Positions 10,493 to 63,968 of a stretch of 64,000 nt of DNA are shown here, piece by piece. Source of the DNA: an uncultured Pseudogracilibacillus sp. (lineage in GTDB: Bacteria; Bacillota; Bacilli; Bacillales; Amphibacillaceae); contig CALJVC010000081.1 in the NCBI GenBank assembly GCA_937974845.1, positions 3,176 through 67,175 on the forward strand. Reading direction: 5' to 3'. Position 1 is the first letter of the stretch; each line of letters begins with the position of its first letter. A model generated the notes under the pieces. That model ran no database searches and was not told the origin of the DNA. It saw nothing but the letters and a program-made list of their open reading frames with translations. The position numbers and the translations under genes are program-made.

Positions 10493-10790
10493 AAAAAAAC
10501 TCTTTTCTCCACACGTCCAGCGACGGACTTTGGGGAGAAAAGAGTTACTTTCACGGTACCACCCAAATTTGTAGCATTCTCGCGAAGGCTACCTCATGAG
10601 ACTTTCCTTAAAGAAAGTCTACTTTGGTAACAGGTGCTTTTGGAACACCCGGCTAAGCCTACTGAGAGGGATCTCCGTTCGACAAAGCACTCAGGGATGA
10701 TGTCGGAATAAGATGTAATTTTAGGTTCTCACCAATCCCTAAATCTCTGTAATTACATGGAGCCTTATTCCTTTTTTCCCGTCATCGATT
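10493..10790 (-). promoter_or_regulatory. T-box leader (stem I, T-box sequence, terminator/antiterminator) upstream of ilvB
   Basis: Minus strand shows the K-turn GATGA...CTGA, AGAGA and GGTGAGA stem I motifs. The T-box sequence AAATTTGGGTGGTACCGTG lies at 10570..10552. The terminator AACTCTTTTCTCC/GGAGAAAAGAGTT is followed by seven T. Confidence 0.9.
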
Positions 10791-10808
10791 TATTGTTTCT
10801 AAATATAT

Positions 10809-13899: not shown

Positions 13900-14349
13900 T
13901 TAATCGAGATGTTTTTCTTCATACTCTTTAATTTTATTAATGCGACGAGTATGGCGATCGCCTTCGAACTCTGTCGTTAACCAAGTATAGACGATTTCTC
14001 TAGCTAAGGCTGGACCGATGACACGCTCGCCCATAGCTAAGACATTCGAATCGTTATGCTGTCTTGTTGCCTTGGCTGTGTACACATCGTGCGTCAAGGC
14101 ACAGCGAATACCTTTTACCTTATTGGCAGAAATCGACATCCCGATTCCTGTACCACAGATAAAAATGCCTCGGTCAAATTCACCACTAGCTACCCGCTCG
14201 GCCGCAGGCAAGGCATAGTCTGGATAATCGACGGAGGTCGTACAGTCAGCCCCTGTATCTTCATATTCATAGCCAAGCTCGTCTAGGACGGCTTTCACTT
14301 CATTACGTAAAGTCATTCCGGCATGGTCGCCTGTAATAATTACTTTCAT
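13900..14349 (-). CDS. rpiB: ribose-5-phosphate isomerase B
   Basis: 149 aa LacAB/RpiB family (ICGTGIGMSISANK). Confidence 0.92.
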   Translation of the reverse strand: MKVIITGDHAGMTLRNEVKAVLDELGYEYEDTGADCTTSVDYPDYALPAAERVASGEFDRGIFICGTGIGMSISANKVKGIRCALTHDVYTAKATRQHNDSNVLAMGERVIGPALAREIVYTWLTTEFEGDRHTRRINKIKEYEEKHLD

Positions 14350-14498
14350 TTTTTTACCTCATCCCTCTAAAATGTATTGTACTTTCATTGTAAACATTAT
14401 AGACAAGTTTTTAAAGCGATATAGGCTGTGGACAAGGATGGGTAAATATGGCCCTTAAAGGAAGGTCAGGTCGAGAAAGACGGAGGTCTTTTTATGTA

Positions 14499-14998
14499 AA
14501 TATATAAGAGCCCAGCCACTGTATATAGGATTTTTCGCCAGTTACAGTCGAGGCCATTCTTGTAAATGGAAACTTCTCCTGTTTACATTGAGGGGCTTAC
14601 CTTGTAAACGAATCTTTTTTCTGTATATAGGGAGGCTTGCCTTGTAAATAGAAATTTCTCCTGTTTACATGAGGGGCTTGCCTTGTAAACGAAAATTCCC
14701 CCTGTTTACATGAGAACCTTGCCTTGTAAACGAACCTTTTTTCTGTATACAGGGGAGCCGGCCACTGTATACAGGATTATTTTTTTCTAAAACCTGTATA
14801 CAGTAAAGGCTTCTACTGTATACGGAATAAAATTTTTTCCAAACCTAGATACAGTAATCATGTTCACCGTATACAGAATTCCTTCTCCATATACAAGAGA
14901 CTGGCCTACCGTAAACAAAAATAAATCCCATATACAGTAGAGCATTCTCTCGTATACCGTCCTCCCTTTCGTATACAAAAGGCTTGTCCTTCTAGCTA
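14499..14998. repeat. Array B: 12 tandem about 41-bp palindromic units of the same family as array A
   Basis: Left half-sites start at about 14499, then 14539, 14580, 14622, 14662, 14703, 14744, 14795, 14846, 14888, 14929 and 14970. Right half-sites follow 20-22 bp later. The only ORF is a repeat-generated 63-aa frame. Confidence 0.9.
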
Positions 14999-15016
14999 GT
15001 CAGCCTATTTTCTAAT

Positions 15017-15048
15017 AAAAAAATGAAGCCCAAGGTTGGACTTCATTT
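15017..15048 (-). terminator. intrinsic terminator of the MCP gene
   Basis: Minus strand AAATGAAGTCC-loop-GGGCTTCATTT followed by a run of seven T, directly after the stop. Confidence 0.7.
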
Positions 15049-15052
15049 TCTA

Positions 15053-16339
15053 CTAATGAAACTTGTGGATCTGCTCCTTTAGGCTACTGGCCTGGGAGGT
15101 TAAATCCTTCGTCAAGCTTTCTAAAACTTCAATCGATTCGTTTTGTTCATTGACCGAAGCACTCACTTGTTCTGTCGCTGCCGATGTCTCTTGGGCGATA
15201 GAAGATACGTCCCGGGACTGGTTCATCGCCGCTTGAATATAAGTCATCTGTTTATTAACTAGCTGGCGAATTCCCTTTACATCCTCAGCTACCGCTTCGG
15301 CAGAACGACGCATTTCCTGAATCGAAGCATTCGTATTTTCACCGCTGATTGCTTCTTCTTCGGCCCGTTTCACATGCTCACTTATCTTCGTTACAACAAC
15401 CGATACATCCCGTTGGATCGTATCGACAAGGGAGCGGATTTGTTGCACCGCTTGGGCACTTTCATCCGCTAAGGTGCGAATTTCATCGGCGACGACCGCA
15501 AAGCCTTGGCCATGCTCTCCGGCTCGAGCCGCTTCAATCGAAGCATTTAAGGCAAGTAAATTCGTCTGCTCCGCGATATCACCGACCATGGAAATAATAG
15601 CCCCGATCTCTTCCGCATTAGCCTTTAACTTCTCGACATCCTTTAAAGAAACCGTCTGTTCCTCCGCTAAAGTCTGGATTCCCGTAACTAAATCGTTCAC
15701 AACCTCGGTACTTTCTGCTAAGGTCGAAAGCATATCAGCCGAACGTTCGTTAGATTGTTCCGCCCGATCCTGTACATGCTCCGCCAGCGAGGTCGCCTGT
15801 TCTACCGCCTCTGCCGTCTCTTGAATAGCATTAGCTGCATTGACTGCCCCACTTGCAATATCGGCGGTTGCTTCACCAATATTTCGAGAGTGCTGGGTCG
15901 TCTTTGTCACGAGCTCCTGCATCTCGTTAACGGTCTTGTTCGTATCGTCAAAGTTCCGTTCGATATCGTCGACCATTTGTTTAATGTTTGTCAGCATCGT
16001 ATCAAAGGCTAGGCTTAAGGAGCGGATTTCATCTTCCGATTTCGGAATCGCAATTTCTTGGTTTAAATTCCCTTCGGCCGCCTCGGTAGCTGCTTCCTCT
16101 AAGCGTTGCAAGGGTTCAGTAATAATCCTAACGAAAATAAAAGTTAATATTCCTGTCCAAAGAATGCCTAGCACGAAGGTAATGCCCGTAAACCAAGGCT
16201 CCGATAAAGATATGTACCCTTTCACATAATCGTATAAAACATAGATAAAAAAAGCGCTTGTCGAATAGGTAACGGTTGCCACAATGGTTGTAAATAAAGT
16301 TAATTTCTTCTGCAAACCAAACTGGTGACGTCGCTTCAC
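15053..16339 (-). CDS. methyl-accepting chemotaxis protein (two TM helices, HAMP, MA domain, minimal sensor loop)
   Basis: 428 aa. Contains the signalling hairpin motif EQTNLLALNASIEAARAGEHGQGFAVVADEIRTLA. Confidence 0.9.
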   Translation of the reverse strand: MKRRHQFGLQKKLTLFTTIVATVTYSTSAFFIYVLYDYVKGYISLSEPWFTGITFVLGILWTGILTFIFVRIITEPLQRLEEAATEAAEGNLNQEIAIPKSEDEIRSLSLAFDTMLTNIKQMVDDIERNFDDTNKTVNEMQELVTKTTQHSRNIGEATADIASGAVNAANAIQETAEAVEQATSLAEHVQDRAEQSNERSADMLSTLAESTEVVNDLVTGIQTLAEEQTVSLKDVEKLKANAEEIGAIISMVGDIAEQTNLLALNASIEAARAGEHGQGFAVVADEIRTLADESAQAVQQIRSLVDTIQRDVSVVVTKISEHVKRAEEEAISGENTNASIQEMRRSAEAVAEDVKGIRQLVNKQMTYIQAAMNQSRDVSSIAQETSAATEQVSASVNEQNESIEVLESLTKDLTSQASSLKEQIHKFH

Positions 16340-41926: not shown

Positions 41927-42338
41927 TTCGACTTCTTTTCCTTCATAGATTCTACTAGATTTTTTTACCGTTTGCAAAGGAAAACGTTCTCTTTTTGTCG
42001 GAAAAAATCACTTTATATCCCTAGAACTCCTTCGCTATCCTAGGTTGAAAGATAAGGCCTGCCTCATTCCATATATAAGATAAGGACTAGTTTTGAAAGC
42101 GCTTGGACTTTCCTAGCGGGAAAACAAAGCTTCTCCGCTCGAAAACGAGGGGTTAAATTTCCTCTTACTCATATTCTTACATATTTACTTTTACTTTCCT
42201 AGCCAATTGTTTCTAAATAGATTCCTTTACACTGGCCAACACGTCATTCACTCTCTAGTAGATTAAGAAGGACAGTGCCTCAGGCCTCTATAGAAACCAA
42301 TCATTCTCCTTTCCTTTAACAAAATCTTTAGCTTTCCC

Positions 42339-42685
42339 TGTATCCAATCTCTAGACCTATTTACAGTAATTCGTTCCATTATAAATAGAAAATATTTTCG
42401 TTTACAAGAAAAGCATCTACTGTATATCCGCATAAATCCTATATACAGTAATCATGTTTACTGTATATAGAAGAAAACTTTTTTATATCCTGTATACAGT
42501 AAATGCCTCTACTGTAAATAGGTTTTTTAAAAAATCTATCCTGTATACAGTAAAATCGTCTACGGTATACAGGAATTATTCCTATTTACAAAAAAGCGTT
42601 ACACTGTATACAGAAAATATTTCTATATATAAGGAGCCAAGTCCATATATATAGAAAATTTTACCGTATACAAGATGCCTTTGCC
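42339..42685. repeat. Array C: 8 tandem about 41-bp palindromic units (plus one flanking half-site) of the same family as arrays A and B
   Basis: Left half-sites start at 42358, 42399, 42440, 42491, 42542, 42583, 42624 and 42665. Right half-sites follow 21-22 bp later. The only ORF is a repeat-generated 66-aa frame. Confidence 0.9.
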
Positions 42686-42701: not shown

Positions 42702-42734
42702 AAAAAAGTGTAGAAGGAGGAATTCCTTCTACAC
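42702..42734 (-). terminator. intrinsic terminator of argS (bidirectional shape)
   Basis: 11-bp stem GTGTAGAAGGA/TCCTTCTACAC flanked by A and T runs, 4 nt after the argS stop. Confidence 0.85.
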
Positions 42735-42737
42735 TTT

Positions 42738-44408
42738 TTACATTTTCTCCGGTGCAGAGACCCCGATAAGACGTAGACTATTTCCTAGGGTAATTTTTAC
42801 AGCCTTCATCAAGGCAATCCGGGCCTCTGTCAATGGTAGGTTCGCCTCATCGATAACCTTCTCCGCATTGTAAAAGCTGTGCAAGAAGCTGGCGAGGTCA
42901 AAAACATACTGGGTAATTCGATAAGGCGCCTCCCGCTCGGCCGCTTCCGCTACCACTTCTGGGAAGGAGGCGAGATGGCGTAGGAGGTCACGCTCCCGTT
43001 CAGTTGTCAGTAGGCTAGGATCGAAGGCTTCGCTAGTAGCCAATCCCTTGGCCTCTGCCTGCTTTAACATAGTACAAATTCGCGCATGGGCGTATTGAAC
43101 ATAGTACACCGGGTTTTCATTCGATTGCGAGCGGGCTAGATTCAGGTCAAAGTCTAATTGCGAATCGTTCGAACGCATGTTGAAAAAGTAACGCACCGCA
43201 TCGACACCTACATCTTCAACTAATTCCCGTAACGTAATCGCACTACCGGTCCGCTTGCTCATGCGTACAATTTCTCCGTCTTCTAAAACATTCACCATCT
43301 GAATGACGCTGACTGATAACTTTTCTTCTGGGTAGCCAAGGGCTTGGATCGCCGCAGAGATTCGCGGAATATAACCATGGTGGTCTGCACCCCAAACGTT
43401 AATAATTTTGTCAAAACCACGGGCTAACTTATTCTGGTGATAGGCAATATCCGGCGTTAAATAGGTGTAGGAGCCATCCTTCTTAATTAACACCCGATCC
43501 TTGTCATCGCCGAAAGCCGTCGACTTAAACCATGTCGCTCCGTCTTCTTCATAGACGTAGCCTCGTTCCTCTAGTTTCGCTAAAACTTGTTCAATCTGCC
43601 CGTCTTCATAAAGGGAAGATTCGGAAAACCATTGGTCAAATTCTACCCGGAAATCAGCTAAGATTTGTTTAATGCGCTCGAGCTGATAATTGAGGCCATA
43701 CTCACGAAAATAGGATAACCTCTCCGCTTCCCCTACTTCTAACCAACGGGAACCTTCCTTCTCTTTGATTTCCTCTGCAATAGCTTTAATATCTTCACCA
43801 TAATAGCCATCCTCAGGCATCGCCATCTCTTGGCCATGGGCTTCGTAATATCGAACTTCAATCGACTTGGCAAGTTGATCGATTTGGTTTCCAGCATCGT
43901 TAATATAATATTCCCGTTCCACATCATAACCAGAAAAGTCTAGGACATTGCTTAACACATCGCCAAAAACCGCTCCCCGAGCATGGCCTAAGTGGGGCTC
44001 TCCTGTCGGGTTCATGGACACGAACTCAACTTGGATTCGTTGACCCTTTCCACGATTCGTCCTTCCATAGTTCTCCTTTTCTTCTAGGATTGTTTCAACG
44101 ACGTCATTTAAATAGGCTTCATCCATAAAGAAATTAATAAAACCAGGTCCTGCAATATCTAGTTCTTTCACCTGGGCCTTGCTCGTATCAAGATGCTCGA
44201 CAATCTGCTCGGCAATTTGGCGCGGAGCCTGCCTAGCTACCCGGGCCAGTTGCATGGCAATGTTCGTTGCAAAATCTCCGTGGGCTTTTTCCCTTGGTTT
44301 TTCTAAAATAATTTCCGGTAACTCCGCTTCCGAACAAAGCTCCGCCTGCAAAATCGCCTGTTTAATCTCCGATTTTAATGTCTCTTCTATCGAACTTAAT
44401 AAGGTCAT
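42738..44408 (-). CDS. argS: arginine--tRNA ligase
   Basis: 556 aa class I synthetase with HIGH-type motif ([13 protein letters not shown]) and MSKRTG (KMSKS-like). Confidence 0.97.
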
Positions 44409-45067: not shown

Positions 45068-47098
45068 ATGATAAAACGATGTATCAAGTTTTTTACATAC
45101 TTTTTATTTCTCCTTGCTTTTTTCATCGGCTGTACCCTAGCCATTCTTTATTCTTTAGGTCCCCCACCGCTTACAGAAGAAGCGGAGGTGACAATCCTTG
45201 CATCCAACGGAGAGCCATTAACCAATACGAAAAAAAATTTACCTTCCTTAGAAGCCTTGCCTGACTACGCCCTTGAAGGCTTCCTACTTGCAGAGGATAA
45301 GCATTTTTACGCCCACTATGGCTTCGATCCTAAAGGGATTGCCCGAGCCCTTGTACGGAACCTTCAAGCCGGTAAGCTAAAGGAAGGAGCAAGCACGATT
45401 ACCCAGCAACTAGCCCGTAACCTCTATCTTTCCCATGAAAAAACATGGTCAAGGAAAATAAAGGAATTATACTACACCTTACGATTGGAAATGTTTTATG
45501 AAAAGGACGAAATCCTCCTCGCCTATTTAAATACAATCTACTTTGGCCATGGAGCTTATGGCATCGAGGAAGCGAGCTACTATTATTACCAAAAAAGCGC
45601 CCGGGACTTAAGCTTAGCCGAAGCAACGATGCTAGTCGGAATACCGAAGGGACCTACCTATTACTCCCCTTTCAATGACCGAGAAAGGGCTGAAAAAAGA
45701 CAAGCCTTTATCCTATCCCTTTTAAAAAATGAGGGCGTCATTACAGAAGCAGCGTATTACGAAGCACTCAAGGAAAAGCCCGCTTTAGCGAACAATAAAA
45801 CAAATCCCGATGACAATGTCCATTACTTTATCGACTATGTTTGGCAAGAGGCGGTCCAGGAACTAGGCTTCGAGAAGCAAAGTTTGCAAAAACGAGGAGC
45901 AACAATCGAAACTACCCTAGATCAAGATTTACAAAGAGAAAGCGATGAACTTATCCGGCAAGAAGTAGAAGATAAAGACGAGCTGGAAGTCGCCCTCCTC
46001 GCCCTCGACCAAACTACTGGTGCCATCCGGCAAATGTTAGGGGGAAAAAACTATCAAGCGAGTCCCTTTAATCGGGCCGTCGACGGAAAACGGATGGTCG
46101 GCTCAACCTTCAAACCATTACTTTATTACGCCGCTTTAGAAAATGGTTTTACAGCGACGACCATGCTCCAAAGTGAACCGACGGCCTTCCTCGTCGATAA
46201 CGACGTATATGAACCGAGTAACTACAACGATTATTACGCCTATAAACCAATCAGCCTCGCCCAAGCAATCGCCCTATCGGACAATATCTACGCCGTAAAA
46301 ACCCATCTCTTCCTCGGAGCTGAGAACGTCGTCGACTGGGCGAAGAAGTTCGGAATCTCGACACCCTTGCCTGAGGTCGCTTCCCTGGCCCTTGGAAGTG
46401 CCTCGATTCCTTTGATAGAAATGGTACAGGCCTATGCGACCATTGCTAATGGTGGCTTCCATATCGAACCCTACGCCATCGAACGTATCGTCGATGGAAA
46501 GGGACATATCCTATACGAAAGAGAAGAAGTAGAAAAGGAACGTATCTTAAAGGAGAAAAAAGCCTTCCTCCTCACCCATTTAATGACCGGAATGTTCGAC
46601 CGGCGTTTAAACGGCTATATGGAGGTGACCGGCGCCTCTTTAATCGATCAATTACAGCCTGAACATGAGTTTGCCGGTAAATCCGGTTCAACTAGTGCCG
46701 ATAGCTGGATGATCGGTTACAGTCCAAAACTCGTCGCCGGTGTATGGACCGGCTACGATGACAACCGTCCCTTGACGAAAACTTCGGAAAGGGCCCTCGC
46801 TAAGAAGGCCTGGGCGTCCCTTATGCACACATACCATGCCGAAGAAGAAGAAAGTCTCCGCTTCGAACCACCAGAAGGCCTAGTCGAAGCTGTAATCGAC
46901 GTCCACTCCGGTCTCCTAGCGACAGAGGCCTGTGAAACGACTCGAAAAACTTACTTCGAAGAAGGAACAGCCCCTACCCTGTACTGTACAGACCATCTAG
47001 CTAACCTAGAGGATGAAGATCAACGGATTGAAACTGCGAGCAAAAAGCTAGACAAGGAAGCTGTCCTTGCTAAAAAACAAAGGAAAACGAGAGAATAA
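45068..47098 (+). CDS. pbpG: class A penicillin-binding protein (GT51 transglycosylase plus transpeptidase, PbpG/YwhE-like)
   Basis: 676 aa with an N-terminal TM anchor, GT51 motifs EDKHFYAHYGFD and RKIKE, and transpeptidase motifs STFKP, SDN and KSGS. Confidence 0.9.
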   Translation: MIKRCIKFFTYFLFLLAFFIGCTLAILYSLGPPPLTEEAEVTILASNGEPLTNTKKNLPSLEALPDYALEGFLLAEDKHFYAHYGFDPKGIARALVRNLQAGKLKEGASTITQQLARNLYLSHEKTWSRKIKELYYTLRLEMFYEKDEILLAYLNTIYFGHGAYGIEEASYYYYQKSARDLSLAEATMLVGIPKGPTYYSPFNDRERAEKRQAFILSLLKNEGVITEAAYYEALKEKPALANNKTNPDDNVHYFIDYVWQEAVQELGFEKQSLQKRGATIETTLDQDLQRESDELIRQEVEDKDELEVALLALDQTTGAIRQMLGGKNYQASPFNRAVDGKRMVGSTFKPLLYYAALENGFTATTMLQSEPTAFLVDNDVYEPSNYNDYYAYKPISLAQAIALSDNIYAVKTHLFLGAENVVDWAKKFGISTPLPEVASLALGSASIPLIEMVQAYATIANGGFHIEPYAIERIVDGKGHILYEREEVEKERILKEKKAFLLTHLMTGMFDRRLNGYMEVTGASLIDQLQPEHEFAGKSGSTSADSWMIGYSPKLVAGVWTGYDDNRPLTKTSERALAKKAWASLMHTYHAEEEESLRFEPPEGLVEAVIDVHSGLLATEACETTRKTYFEEGTAPTLYCTDHLANLEDEDQRIETASKKLDKEAVLAKKQRKTRE

Positions 47099-47100
47099 GG

Positions 47101-47144
47101 CACAAAAAAACCTGTATACACAAGGTGTAACAGGTTTTTTTGTG
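47101..47144 (+). terminator. long palindromic bidirectional terminator containing one CCTGTATACA core
   Basis: CACAAAAAAACCTGTATACAC-AAG-GTGTAACAGGTTTTTTTGTG, starting 3 nt after the PBP stop. Confidence 0.8.
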
Positions 47145-62076: not shown

Positions 62077-62251
62077 CTCTTATCAAGACGGATGGAGGGA
62101 ATGGGCCCAATGAAGTCCAGCAACCTGAAAGCATACGTCCATGCTTTTTCCGGTGCTAAATCCTACAGGTAGACTACCTGGAAGATAAGAGGAGGAATGA
62201 ATCGAGACGATATCAAACCTTCTTCTATCTTTTTTAGAAGAAGGTTTTTTT
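62077..62251 (+). promoter_or_regulatory. SAM-I (S-box) riboswitch with terminator
   Basis: CTCTTATCAAGA...GGAGGGA...GGCCC.ATGAAG...CAGCAACC...GGTGCTAAATCC...GAAGATAAGAG, followed by the terminator AACCTTCTTCT/AGAAGAAGGTT and a T run. Confidence 0.9.
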
Positions 62252-62339: not shown

Positions 62340-63968
62340 ATGGTTAATTTTCAGTTTCAAAAGGACGATACGATCTTAGTTCATGGAGGGCAGGAACCCG
62401 ATCCGGTAACTGGCTCACGGGCGGTACCGATTCATCAAACGACATCCTACGTTTTCCGAGATACAGACCATGCCCGTAACCTATTCGCCTTAACAGAGTC
62501 AGGAAACATTTATACCCGGATCATGAACCCGACGACCGACACCCTTGAACAGCGGGTTGCCTTATTAGAGGACGGTACAGCTGCCGTCGCCGTTTCTTCC
62601 GGAATGGCAGCTATTACGTACGCCATTTTAAACGTAGCCGGTGCCGGCGACGAAATCGTTACAGATAGTAATCTTTACGGTGGAACGTATAACTTATTTG
62701 TACATACCTTGCCTCGCTTCGGCATTAAGGTAAAGTTCGTCGATGGATCTAATCCCGAAAATTTCCGCACGGCCATTACCGATAAGACGAAGGCCATTTT
62801 TGGCGAGACGATTACGAACCCAAGCTTACATGTTTTTGATATTGAAAAAGTCGCTGCAATCGCCCATGAACACAATATCCCTTTAATTATCGACAACACC
62901 TTCGCGCCCTACTTTGCTAAACCTTTACAATGGGGAGCCGACGTCGTCGTCCATTCAGCTACGAAGTGGATCGGTGGACACGGTACGAGCATCGGTGGTG
63001 TCGTCGTCGACGGTGGACGCTTTAACTGGGATAATCCGAAGTTTCCAGGCTTTACAGAGCCAGACGAAAGCTATGGCGGGGTACGCTATGCCGATTTAGG
63101 TCCTGTAGCTTTTGCCGTCAAATTACGGGTACAATTATTACGAGATACCGGTGCAGCCCTAAGCCCACACAATGCTTTTTTACTGCTCCAAGGCTTAGAA
63201 ACCTTGCACCTACGAATCACCCGGCATAACGATAATGCCATTGAAGTAGCTAACTACTTAAATAATCATCCCGCCGTCGCCTGGGTAAACTTCCCTGGCT
63301 TAAAAGACCATCCATCCCACGAGCTCGCCCATAAGTACTTTAGCGAGGGCTATGGTTCTATCGTTACCTTTGGTATCAAGGGGGGCTACGAAGCAGGGAA
63401 AAACTTAATCGACACAATCGATCTCTGGTCGCACGTCGCCAACGTCGGGGACGCTAAGTCTTTAATCATTCACCCGGCATCCACGACCCACCAACAGCTA
63501 AGCCCAGAAGATTTAGCTAAAAGCGGGGTCACAGAGGATCTAATCCGTCTCTCCGTAGGTATCGAAAGTCTTGACGACATTATCGGTACATTAGATGAAG
63601 CGATTGGGAAAGTAACAAAAGTATATACCCGAGTCCAGGAAGAAACGGATGCTACGGATTGGTTAACGACTTCTCCTTTCGACCGTTCCGATGGTATACG
63701 ACGGAAAACAATCGTCGTGAAAGGCGATGAAAAACTATACGAAGAAGTCCGTAGCCTGACGAAAAAAGGCTATCACGTCCTACGAATCGAAGACCATGAC
63801 AAAGAAATTGTCGACTGCTTATTAACTAATGAAGCAATTACCGACCCATTTATACAGGACGTTCAAGCCATCGAACCTAAAATTATTTGGACGACAGACC
63901 GTGTAGATACGACAGATGCTTCAATTGTGACGATTGCTGAGAAGGACTTTTTAGGTTACTTCATTTAA
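62340..63968 (+). CDS. metY: O-acetylhomoserine sulfhydrylase (aminocarboxypropyltransferase) with a C-terminal extension of about 115 aa
   Basis: Cys/Met PLP family with the PLP lysine in [11 protein letters not shown]. The canonical end ([25 protein letters not shown]) is followed by an extra domain of about 115 aa. Confidence 0.9.

Follow-up and report, generated by a model that had tools for sequence, protein, structure and literature searches.

An array of imperfect palindromes in the MCP-rpiB spacer of an uncultured Pseudogracilibacillus: a candidate REP/BIME-like element and putative boundary between transcription units

In a stretch of 64,000 nucleotides from an uncultured Pseudogracilibacillus sp. 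(contig CALJVC010000081.1 of assembly GCA_937974845.1, positions 3,176 to 67,175; hereafter the window, to whose positions coordinates refer), the genes MCP and rpiB, both on the minus strand, are separated by a spacer of 703 bp in total that houses a regular array of short repeated units (array B). The question raised by this locus is what such an array is, how it came to lie between these genes, and what it may do there. The observation itself is confirmed: from a reading of the sequence and a table of half-sites, array B occupies positions 14495-14998 and consists of 12 imperfect-palindrome units over about 500 bp. It is considered here as a dispersed and lineage-restricted palindromic element resembling the REP/BIME elements, which would mark and may insulate a boundary between transcription units, a reading to which we assign a probability of about 0.5.

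Units, arrays and shared architecture

The left half-sites of array B start at 14499, ~14541, 14580, 14622, 14662, 14703, 14744, 14795, 14846, 14888, 14929 and 14970, which corresponds to steps of 42, 39, 42, 40, 41, 41, 51, 51, 42, 41 and 41 bp; the left half-site of the second unit (B2) is degenerate, and its start is therefore ambiguous. Right half-sites are found 20-23 bp from the left ones (exactly 22 bp in 7 of 11 units). The half-site starts and steps given in the original prediction match this table within 2 bp, and its description of an array of repeated units with two half-sites each is borne out by the table, by Tandem Repeats Finder (TRF), which independently detects the array with periods of 41 and 82, and by a general repeat search reporting the same families. 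The motif TGTATACA, allowing at most one mismatch, has 47 occurrences in the window, whereas shuffles contain 15.8 +/- 4.5, the excess being confined to three arrays (A, B and C). A detector of half-site chains found chains of 8-10 units at these three arrays only, and two chance chains of 3 units in 1.5 Mb of DNA from relatives. A unit profile built from 23 units likewise recovers the three arrays, in agreement with the earlier assignment of array B to the same family as another array of the window; arrays A, B and C are its only matches, with no solitary unit in the window. The only exact TGTATACA outside the arrays (47106-47137) belongs to the terminator stem after a penicillin-binding-protein gene (45068-47098) and is probably due to chance.

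Each unit is an imperfect palindrome of 34 nt with arms of up to 13 bp. In the consensus, a left half-site (ccTRTWTACAGTA) and a right half-site (TACTGTAWACAgaa) enclose a variable centre of ~8 nt, and an A/T-rich linker that is itself roughly symmetric comes next. In an alignment of 40 columns (consensus ccTaTtTACAGTAg for the left half and cTACTGTAtACAgaa for the right half), positions T10, A11, C12 and A13 of the left half-site and T30, A31 and A33 of the right one are invariant, and four central columns are nearly free. Two central columns that are unable to pair in a hairpin are still dyad-symmetric, with 13 complementary pairs against 6.8 expected. Half-sites are spaced by 22 bp within a unit and by 19 or 29 bp between units (mean half-site period of the family, 20.5 bp), and with a helical turn of 10.2-10.25 bp, units of 41 and 51 bp span 4 and 5 turns. 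The GTAG/CTAC motifs found in the units lie apically in the arms and do not occupy the palindrome foot. Two types of linker alternate, a G/C-richer centre and the A/T-rich linker, and the near-symmetry of the units prevents their orientation from being called: the array is near-identical on both strands, and a profile trained on one array gives the others no clear orientation.

Array A (1949-2476, no strand) counts 13 units between the convergent genes ltaS (+) and a PALP-enzyme gene (-), whose terminators flank it at 1860-1887 and 2516-2543. Array C (42337-42680, no strand) has about 9 units, starts ~30 nt past the argS terminator (42703-42739) and lies ~500 bp upstream of a gene for an Fe-S/CCG oxidoreductase. 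Altogether ~34 units are grouped in three arrays within 77 kb of sequence from the species, all intergenic and all beside terminators: an intrinsic terminator belonging to an adjacent gene precedes the start of each array by 13-50 nt, and a stop codon by 55-96 bp. For array B this is the MCP terminator (15014-15049, minus strand; stem arms at 15020-15033 and 15036-15049, followed by a T-run), and the first half-site is found ~36 nt past it. At the opposite end, a spacer (14432-14494, no strand) that has no counterpart in the closest relative (locus L011, described below) and is unlike the flanks of arrays A and C separates the array from the rpiB promoter and 5' leader block (14350-14431, minus strand), which is conserved in L011 and contains promoter-like hexamers at 14387-14415. 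The earlier placement of the array, with the MCP terminator on one side and the rpiB promoter on the other, holds (terminator 15020-15049, promoter-like site 14387-14415).

In every array, 51-bp steps occur exactly twice and side by side; they join units A4-A6, B7-B9 and C4-C6 and arise from 21-nt linkers carrying A and T runs. In array B the core so defined (units B7-B9, 14744-14887, no strand) contains the best palindromes of the array and two such linkers. Core units are near-perfect palindromes with arms of 12-13 bp; they pair at 12-13 of 15 positions with energies of -12 to -18 kcal/mol (B9 being weaker) and are those most alike across arrays, with 31-35 of 40 positions shared; B7 and B8 reach -15 to -18 kcal/mol on both strands, and B9 ~-10 kcal/mol on the minus strand only. 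Outer units pair at 6-9 of 15 positions, are more degenerate with distance from the core, and are most similar to their own neighbours (A8-A12; B3/B5/B6), which indicates local tandem amplification of already degenerate copies. The tail block B3-B6 (14578-14743, no strand; TRF period 82, 2.1 copies) is a local tandem duplication of an 82-bp block of two units (CCTGTTTACAT..CCTTGTAAACG subtype). The sequences of B3, B5 and B6 agree with those reported earlier, and their description as near-identical copies, which are recent ones, is upheld by this duplication and by unit comparison (B5 and B6 are identical at 33 of 40 positions). Units B10-B12 and a head motif (14888-15005, minus strand) form the terminator side of array B; the head motif itself (GGCTGACTAGCTAGAAGG, 14988-15005, minus strand) resembles the low-coordinate end of array A (GTCGGACTAGATACAAGG).

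When the arrays are read as A(+), B(-) and C(-), each one shows three 41-bp steps, then two 51-bp steps, then 7, 6 and 2-3 more, respectively. The three-step end adjoins the terminator of ltaS (A), MCP (B) or argS (C), and a weak head motif (G.C.GACTAG.TA.AAGG) is common to this end in arrays A and B. Comparison of the array ends revealed no conserved end sequence beyond this motif, and position-by-position homology between arrays was not found outside the core: the unit similarity matrices show no clear diagonal and MAFFT slips by one unit.

Age, stability and genomic setting

The rpiB-centred loci of 80 species representatives (~1.5 Mb) were used for comparison with relatives. They place the window in Pseudogracilibacillus, the best match (L011) being an uncultured Pseudogracilibacillus metagenome-assembled genome (MAG) with 96% identity for rpiB and 89% for MCP. 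Of the 76 relatives for which both flanks are visible, 41 have a full-length MCP orthologue at the ywlE-rpiB junction, in the genera Pseudogracilibacillus, Virgibacillus, Oceanobacillus, Lentibacillus, Mesobacillus, Peribacillus, Parageobacillus and Heyndrickxia. The gene is therefore old at this location and, as judged from this comparison, is ancestral at the ywlE-rpiB position. The MCP-rpiB spacers of the relatives measure 18-357 bp (median 84), the 703 bp of the window being the longest seen. The spacer of L011 (152 bp) aligns over its promoter-proximal 80 bp with window positions 14350-14431, has a different terminator and contains no unit of the window family. Metagenomic relatives identified via MCP homologues (79, 76 and 74% identity) have spacers of 347, 321 and 269 bp, in which no unit was found either. 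The promoter block of rpiB is conserved in the closest relatives (MCP identities of 89, 79 and 74%). The unit profile gave no match in ~1.5-1.6 Mb of relatives' DNA and no further array in 13 kb of species sequence beyond the window (extensions of 3 kb and 10 kb). On the evidence of these searches, the window family is lineage-restricted and absent from the sister species examined.

The original prediction had proposed that the array might have arrived, or expanded, together with an extra MCP gene, and had called for the ywlE-rpiB intervals of related genomes to be aligned. In these intervals MCP is present without the array B family, and a joint arrival is rejected: the gene is ancestral here, and the array, which is absent from the nearest relatives, is not. 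An origin from a phage, plasmid or virus was also discarded, as plasmid and phage sequences had no blastn match and viral contigs contained no occurrence (0 hits) of a strict pattern; the 38 viral matches of a looser pattern were all scored as chance by the unit profile. A pattern scan of metagenomes, where all scored matches among those listed were due to chance, is uninformative on distribution.

Within the species, the same 703-bp spacer is recovered in ten independent assemblies (different runs and projects); array A is represented in five assemblies with a length difference of at most 1 bp, and array C in two assemblies with identical length. Coverage was deep enough for scoring in arrays A and B, which have together 4 polymorphic sites in 1031 bp (0.38-0.40%, compared with 0.57% for other intergenic DNA, 1.62% for third codon positions and 0.18-0.25% for first and second positions). 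The array does not change faster than the rest of the non-coding DNA, and its rate is four times below that of third codon positions. The agreement of ten assemblies on length, together with this low polymorphism, shows that it is neither an artefact of assembly nor a variable-number repeat. In the adjacent MCP gene, within-species single-nucleotide polymorphisms cluster in the 3' third (gene positions 1005-1179, window 15161-15335, codons ~335-393), and they recur among the ten assemblies in varying combinations, which suggests recombination between lineages.

In transcription order, the minus-strand neighbourhood comprises sua5/ywlC, mntP, ywlE (LMWPc), MCP (15053-16339; 428 aa, HAMP and MCPsignal domains, stop codon at 15053), array B, rpiB (13900-14349; 149 aa, LacAB_rpiB domain), ywlG (DUF436), glyA and upp. 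The genes of the window are all housekeeping genes (including ltaS, leu/ilv, rpiB, MCP and argS), and annotation combined with a domain scan identified no transposase, cas, tas or rep gene and no replication origin in the window. GC skew is negative on the plus strand throughout the window (~-0.1) and the minus strand carries nearly all genes, which places the window on one replichore with the minus strand leading. None of the arrays matches an Rfam model at gathering score, the only matches being to miRNA-hairpin models below threshold. The sole Rfam match at gathering score in the window is a SAM riboswitch (62077-62191, plus strand, 76.8 bits) upstream of a gene for a Cys/Met-metabolism PLP enzyme (62340-63968). 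A T-box leader (10528-10794, minus strand) is located upstream of ilvB, with 83.5 bits (E = 1.6e-18), a value under the Rfam gathering score of 93, so that a default scan does not report it.

Folding, possible function and rival explanations

The palindromes were evaluated by counting paired cells in the unit alignment. In register, 69.3% (plus strand) and 81.2% (minus strand) of cells pair, far above the 27-55% obtained when partners are slid, so the palindrome register is real. When partners are shuffled among units, 67.8 +/- 1.2% (plus) and 79.6 +/- 1.2% (minus) still pair, and the observed pairing is thus explained by the inherited palindromic consensus; selection on a hairpin is not supported, covariation being no greater than in shuffles on either strand. 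The whole of array B folds with z-scores of -6.5 and -6.9 relative to shuffles (two strands), mostly through pairing between units. Folding energy is not decisive for the choice of strand (-162.5 vs -153.6 kcal/mol for the whole array, -264 vs -230 for the sums of units). Mismatches within the palindromes comprise 62 A.C vs 21 G.T on the plus strand, which is the C-rich lagging strand across the window, and the bias is present in all three arrays. Such a bias would fit equally strand-biased mutation of once-perfect palindromes and selection for G.U-tolerant hairpins in sense-strand RNA.

Units were considered as terminator-like when they satisfied a heuristic of our own (hairpin of -10 kcal/mol or lower, with at least 5 T in the next 9 nt). 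Each array has 2-3 such units, one or two per strand, mostly the units of the 51-bp core or their immediate neighbours: A3(+), A5(-), A6(-), B7(+), B11(-), and in array C those at 42491(+) and 42542(-), B11 being an outlier. On the minus strand, B8 is followed by UUUU. A consensus terminator scanner made no call at array units despite these heuristic matches. In these folding predictions, the core of each array looks like a bidirectional terminator, which for array B would be compatible with insulation of rpiB from MCP read-through. A link with the GTATAC restriction site was dismissed, this site not being avoided outside the arrays (13 seen vs 19 expected).

In the scenario that we favour, the element would have entered a terminator-to-promoter spacer by transposition or recombination and would then have grown by tandem duplication, following the two-step model put forward for BIMEs, the outer palindromes decaying later under strand-biased mutation. 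The core of array B would most likely act as a bidirectional back-up terminator or as a boundary between the MCP and rpiB transcription units, either through RNA hairpins formed on read-through transcripts, or through proteins or supercoiling acting on phased palindromes, or both. Both the way in which the element arrived and its role as a boundary or terminator are inferred here, and this role is plausible. If it holds, a bidirectional terminator or topological boundary would explain why a 700-bp spacer is tolerated between MCP and rpiB, and the core would represent a compact insulator part for Bacillus engineering. With its regular core and decaying flanks and its stability within the species, the family could also provide a clean model for the birth, amplification and decay of such elements.

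Several points weigh against this scenario. In contrast to classical REPs, the units are rich in A and T and none of them is solitary, and no RAYT/IS200-type transposase or other mobility gene was found in the scan, which covered the window only. The whole spacer differs from that of L011, so that no target-site duplication or exact insertion boundary is definable. No base-pair covariation is observed (73/500 and 61/500 shuffles reach the observed value), hence selection on hairpins is not demonstrated, and the flank units fold poorly (0 to -5 kcal/mol). Orientation is ambiguous as well: the step pattern and the head motif suggest that array A is inverted relative to B and C, but all three arrays agree in their unit profile scores and mismatch bias with respect to the chromosome strand.

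Tandem arrays in the loci of relatives bear on the alternatives. TRF analysis of these loci (1.54 Mb; L011-L090 and L249-L255) detected 105 tandem arrays, with base periods of 20-21 bp in 76 cases, 41-42 bp in 4 and 51-53 bp in 6. Arrays with a period of 20-21 bp are made of direct repeats that combine a conserved core of ~12 nt with a variable spacer, and alternation often produces a super-period of 42 bp. Palindromic units occur in several of the 51-53-bp arrays. The sequences of the arrays are lineage-specific. Among the 75 arrays that were classified, 53 are located in co-directional, 16 in convergent and 2 in divergent spacers (spacer counts 879, 58 and 70), that is 0.23, 0.94 and 0.10 arrays per kb, respectively, a density four times higher in convergent than in co-directional spacers and lowest in divergent ones. 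Their start is typically 60-80 bp past the upstream stop codon. In five Mesobacillus species and one Bacillus MAG, the MCP-rpiB spacer itself contains a 20- or 21-bp array of their own, just after the MCP terminator (L061 9714-9829, L065 7216-7309, L066 6196-6282, L067 9748-9861, L069 9748-9858 and L086 9768-9862). The 11-nt core of the Mesobacillus arrays (TCGCTATAAAA) is conserved, with variable spacers and copy number (4-6); the array of the Bacillus MAG has the core TTTGTAGAATT. The window family fits this positional class of post-terminator arrays and differs from it in being palindromic and dispersed as one family. The ~10.3-bp-locked periods of the class may point to a general rule for DNA after terminators.

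Some arrays of relatives may be mentioned in their own right. In L254 (the relative with 74% MCP identity), a 51-bp array (15880-16200) between a NERD-domain gene and ilvB contains six palindromic units with 12-bp arms (GCGCACACAAGT..ACTTGTGTGCGC); gene calling takes it for a gene of 131 aa, for which Pfam gives no hit. In architecture it equals the window family, and its sequence is unrelated. An array with a 21-bp period occupies the ywlG-glyA spacer of Fictibacillus (L090 11155-11282, L088 11148-11244, L077 11128-11203, L078 11143-11202); 8 of 9 positions of its core GTGGATAA match the DnaA-box consensus, and it may be a DnaA-box cluster. Very long arrays are found in L072 (2432-3373) and L081 (5337-6514), with 18.5 copies of 51 bp and 11.4 copies of 103 bp, respectively.

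Array B could instead act at the DNA level, RNA hairpins being irrelevant: its ~24 phased dyad sites of TGTATACA type would be a landing pad for a dimeric DNA-binding or nucleoid-associated protein (binding cooperatively), or for gyrase, and would form a roadblock or a topological barrier between transcription units. We consider this rather unlikely, although the rigid spacing of half-sites (22 bp within, 19 or 29 bp between units), the unit lengths of 4 and 5 helical turns, the invariant half-site cores TACA and TA.A with free centres, the dyad symmetry of the unpairable central columns (13 vs 6.8) and the lack of covariation all argue for it. So do the periods of relatives' arrays, almost all multiples of ~10.3 bp, and the five Mesobacillus arrays, which keep their 11-nt core and vary their spacers as protein sites do; BIMEs, moreover, bind IHF, gyrase and Pol I (PMC3333891). 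This explanation, however, comes without a candidate protein; the half-sites of the flanks are degenerate, and descent by duplication alone would also conserve spacing. Strong intrinsic curvature was rejected, predicted curvature being modest and not extreme (3rd-7th percentile of the window for the arrays, in a wedge model). Because the arrays of relatives all differ in core, a single conserved host factor cannot explain the class. A broader version, in which array B would be one case of a Bacillaceae-wide and apparently undescribed class of helical-period arrays located 60-80 bp past stop codons (periods of 20-21, 41-42 and 51-53 bp), with lineage-specific cores and serving as DNA-level boundaries by phased protein binding or supercoil pinning, seems to us unlikely; under this hypothesis separate events would have filled the MCP-rpiB spacers of Pseudogracilibacillus, Mesobacillus and another Bacillus lineage.

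We regard as more doubtful still a neutral satellite, whose repeats would come from slippage or template switching at the hairpin of the terminator and would persist without function in a permissive spacer. The decayed flank units, the tails made through local duplication, the mismatches following replication-strand bias (62 A.C vs 21 G.T), the lack of covariation and the absence of the family from the sister species would all be expected of it, but three loci sharing the same unit and the 41/51/51/41 architecture make independent slippage unlikely. Furthermore, no copy-number variation is seen in ten assemblies, polymorphism is four times below that of third codon positions, and core units are near-perfect and similar across loci. 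A guide-RNA array of CRISPR or TIGR type, the remnant of a decayed gene and an assembly artefact are together scarcely credible. Conserved segments do alternate regularly with variable ones, and an open reading frame of 63 aa (14787-14978, minus strand) overlaps the array; yet the variable segments are only 8-12 nt long and mutually related, with no cas or tas gene in the window, and the open reading frame has no Pfam match. The original prediction had itself raised a decayed gene and an artefact as possible objections: no relative has a gene in the spacer, the ten assemblies agree base for base on its length, and both were rejected.

Comparison with known systems

CRISPR arrays combine identical repeats of 23-50 nt with unique spacers about as long, usually near cas genes; array B has diverging repeats and related variable segments of 8-12 nt, in a window devoid of cas genes. 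TIGR-Tas systems consist of an array beside a Nop-domain tas gene, with paired short spacers between the repeats; array B has neighbours that are all housekeeping genes, without a tas gene in the window. Plasmid iterons and chromosomal DnaA-box clusters are, like array B, short sites that recur at intervals of roughly two helical turns along one side of the DNA. Iterons are direct repeats of 17-22 bp beside a rep gene or origin. Their ~22-bp spacing is also that of the window family, which differs from them by inverted (dyad) pairs in place of direct repeats, by the absence of a rep gene or origin nearby, and by its location in three ordinary chromosomal spacers. Mycobacterial MIRU/VNTR loci are likewise dispersed intergenic tandem arrays, with units of 40-55 bp, but their copy number is strain-variable, whereas that of array B is constant in 10 assemblies and its units are palindromic.

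Streptococcus pneumoniae has BOX elements (boxA-boxB(n)-boxC), which are composite, are scattered between genes, and have a tandem module of ~45 bp and strong predicted folding. They resemble the window family in their Firmicute host, composite dispersed structure, tandem module and folding; the window family has no sequence similarity to them, has palindromic units, and shows no recognisable A or C end module save the weak head motif. In clustered terminator hairpins, several hairpins are found within ~80 nt past the stop codon (Gupta and Pal 2021, PMC8355165), and the core units of array B have T-rich tails like them. Array B differs by its 12 units over 500 bp, mostly weak hairpins without a U-tract, located past a good terminator.

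REP/BIME-type elements are well studied in Proteobacteria. BIME clusters consist of REPs in alternate orientations with linkers of two types, and REPs have a conserved GTAG/C tetranucleotide at the palindrome foot and flank a cognate RAYT gene (TnpA-REP, Y1 HUH). To our knowledge, few descriptions exist in spore-forming Firmicutes, and we know of none for the host group; a literature search on TGTATACA repeats, on Pseudogracilibacillus repeats and on 21-bp or iteron-like intergenic arrays of Bacillaceae found nothing relevant. As in the REP/BIMEs of E. coli, Pseudomonas and Stenotrophomonas, the window family consists of short imperfect palindromes that are clustered in intergenic DNA at gene 3' ends, between tandem or convergent genes, and that appear to be species-specific and dispersed. 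REP/BIMEs are palindromes of 20-40 nt (PMC3333891), a range that includes the 34-nt units of the window. The roles described for BIMEs are those of terminator, mRNA stabiliser, topological insulator and protein-binding site, and a model of transposition followed by local amplification has been proposed for their spread (PMC3333891). One of them, REP325, located between tandem genes, acts both as a partial terminator and as a stabiliser (bioRxiv 10.64898/2026.03.23.713779). The window family has neither GTAG at the foot of the palindrome nor a Y1 (RAYT) transposase among the genes of the window, and its membership in REP/RAYT proper is not established from the sequence. It is further distinguished by an AT-rich TGTATACA core in place of a GC-rich one, by the lack of solitary units, and by a Bacillaceae host. 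With a fixed 41/51-bp spacing, 9-13 units per array and a defined core with decaying flanks, it would represent a new variant of intergenic palindromic repeat clusters of a known sort.

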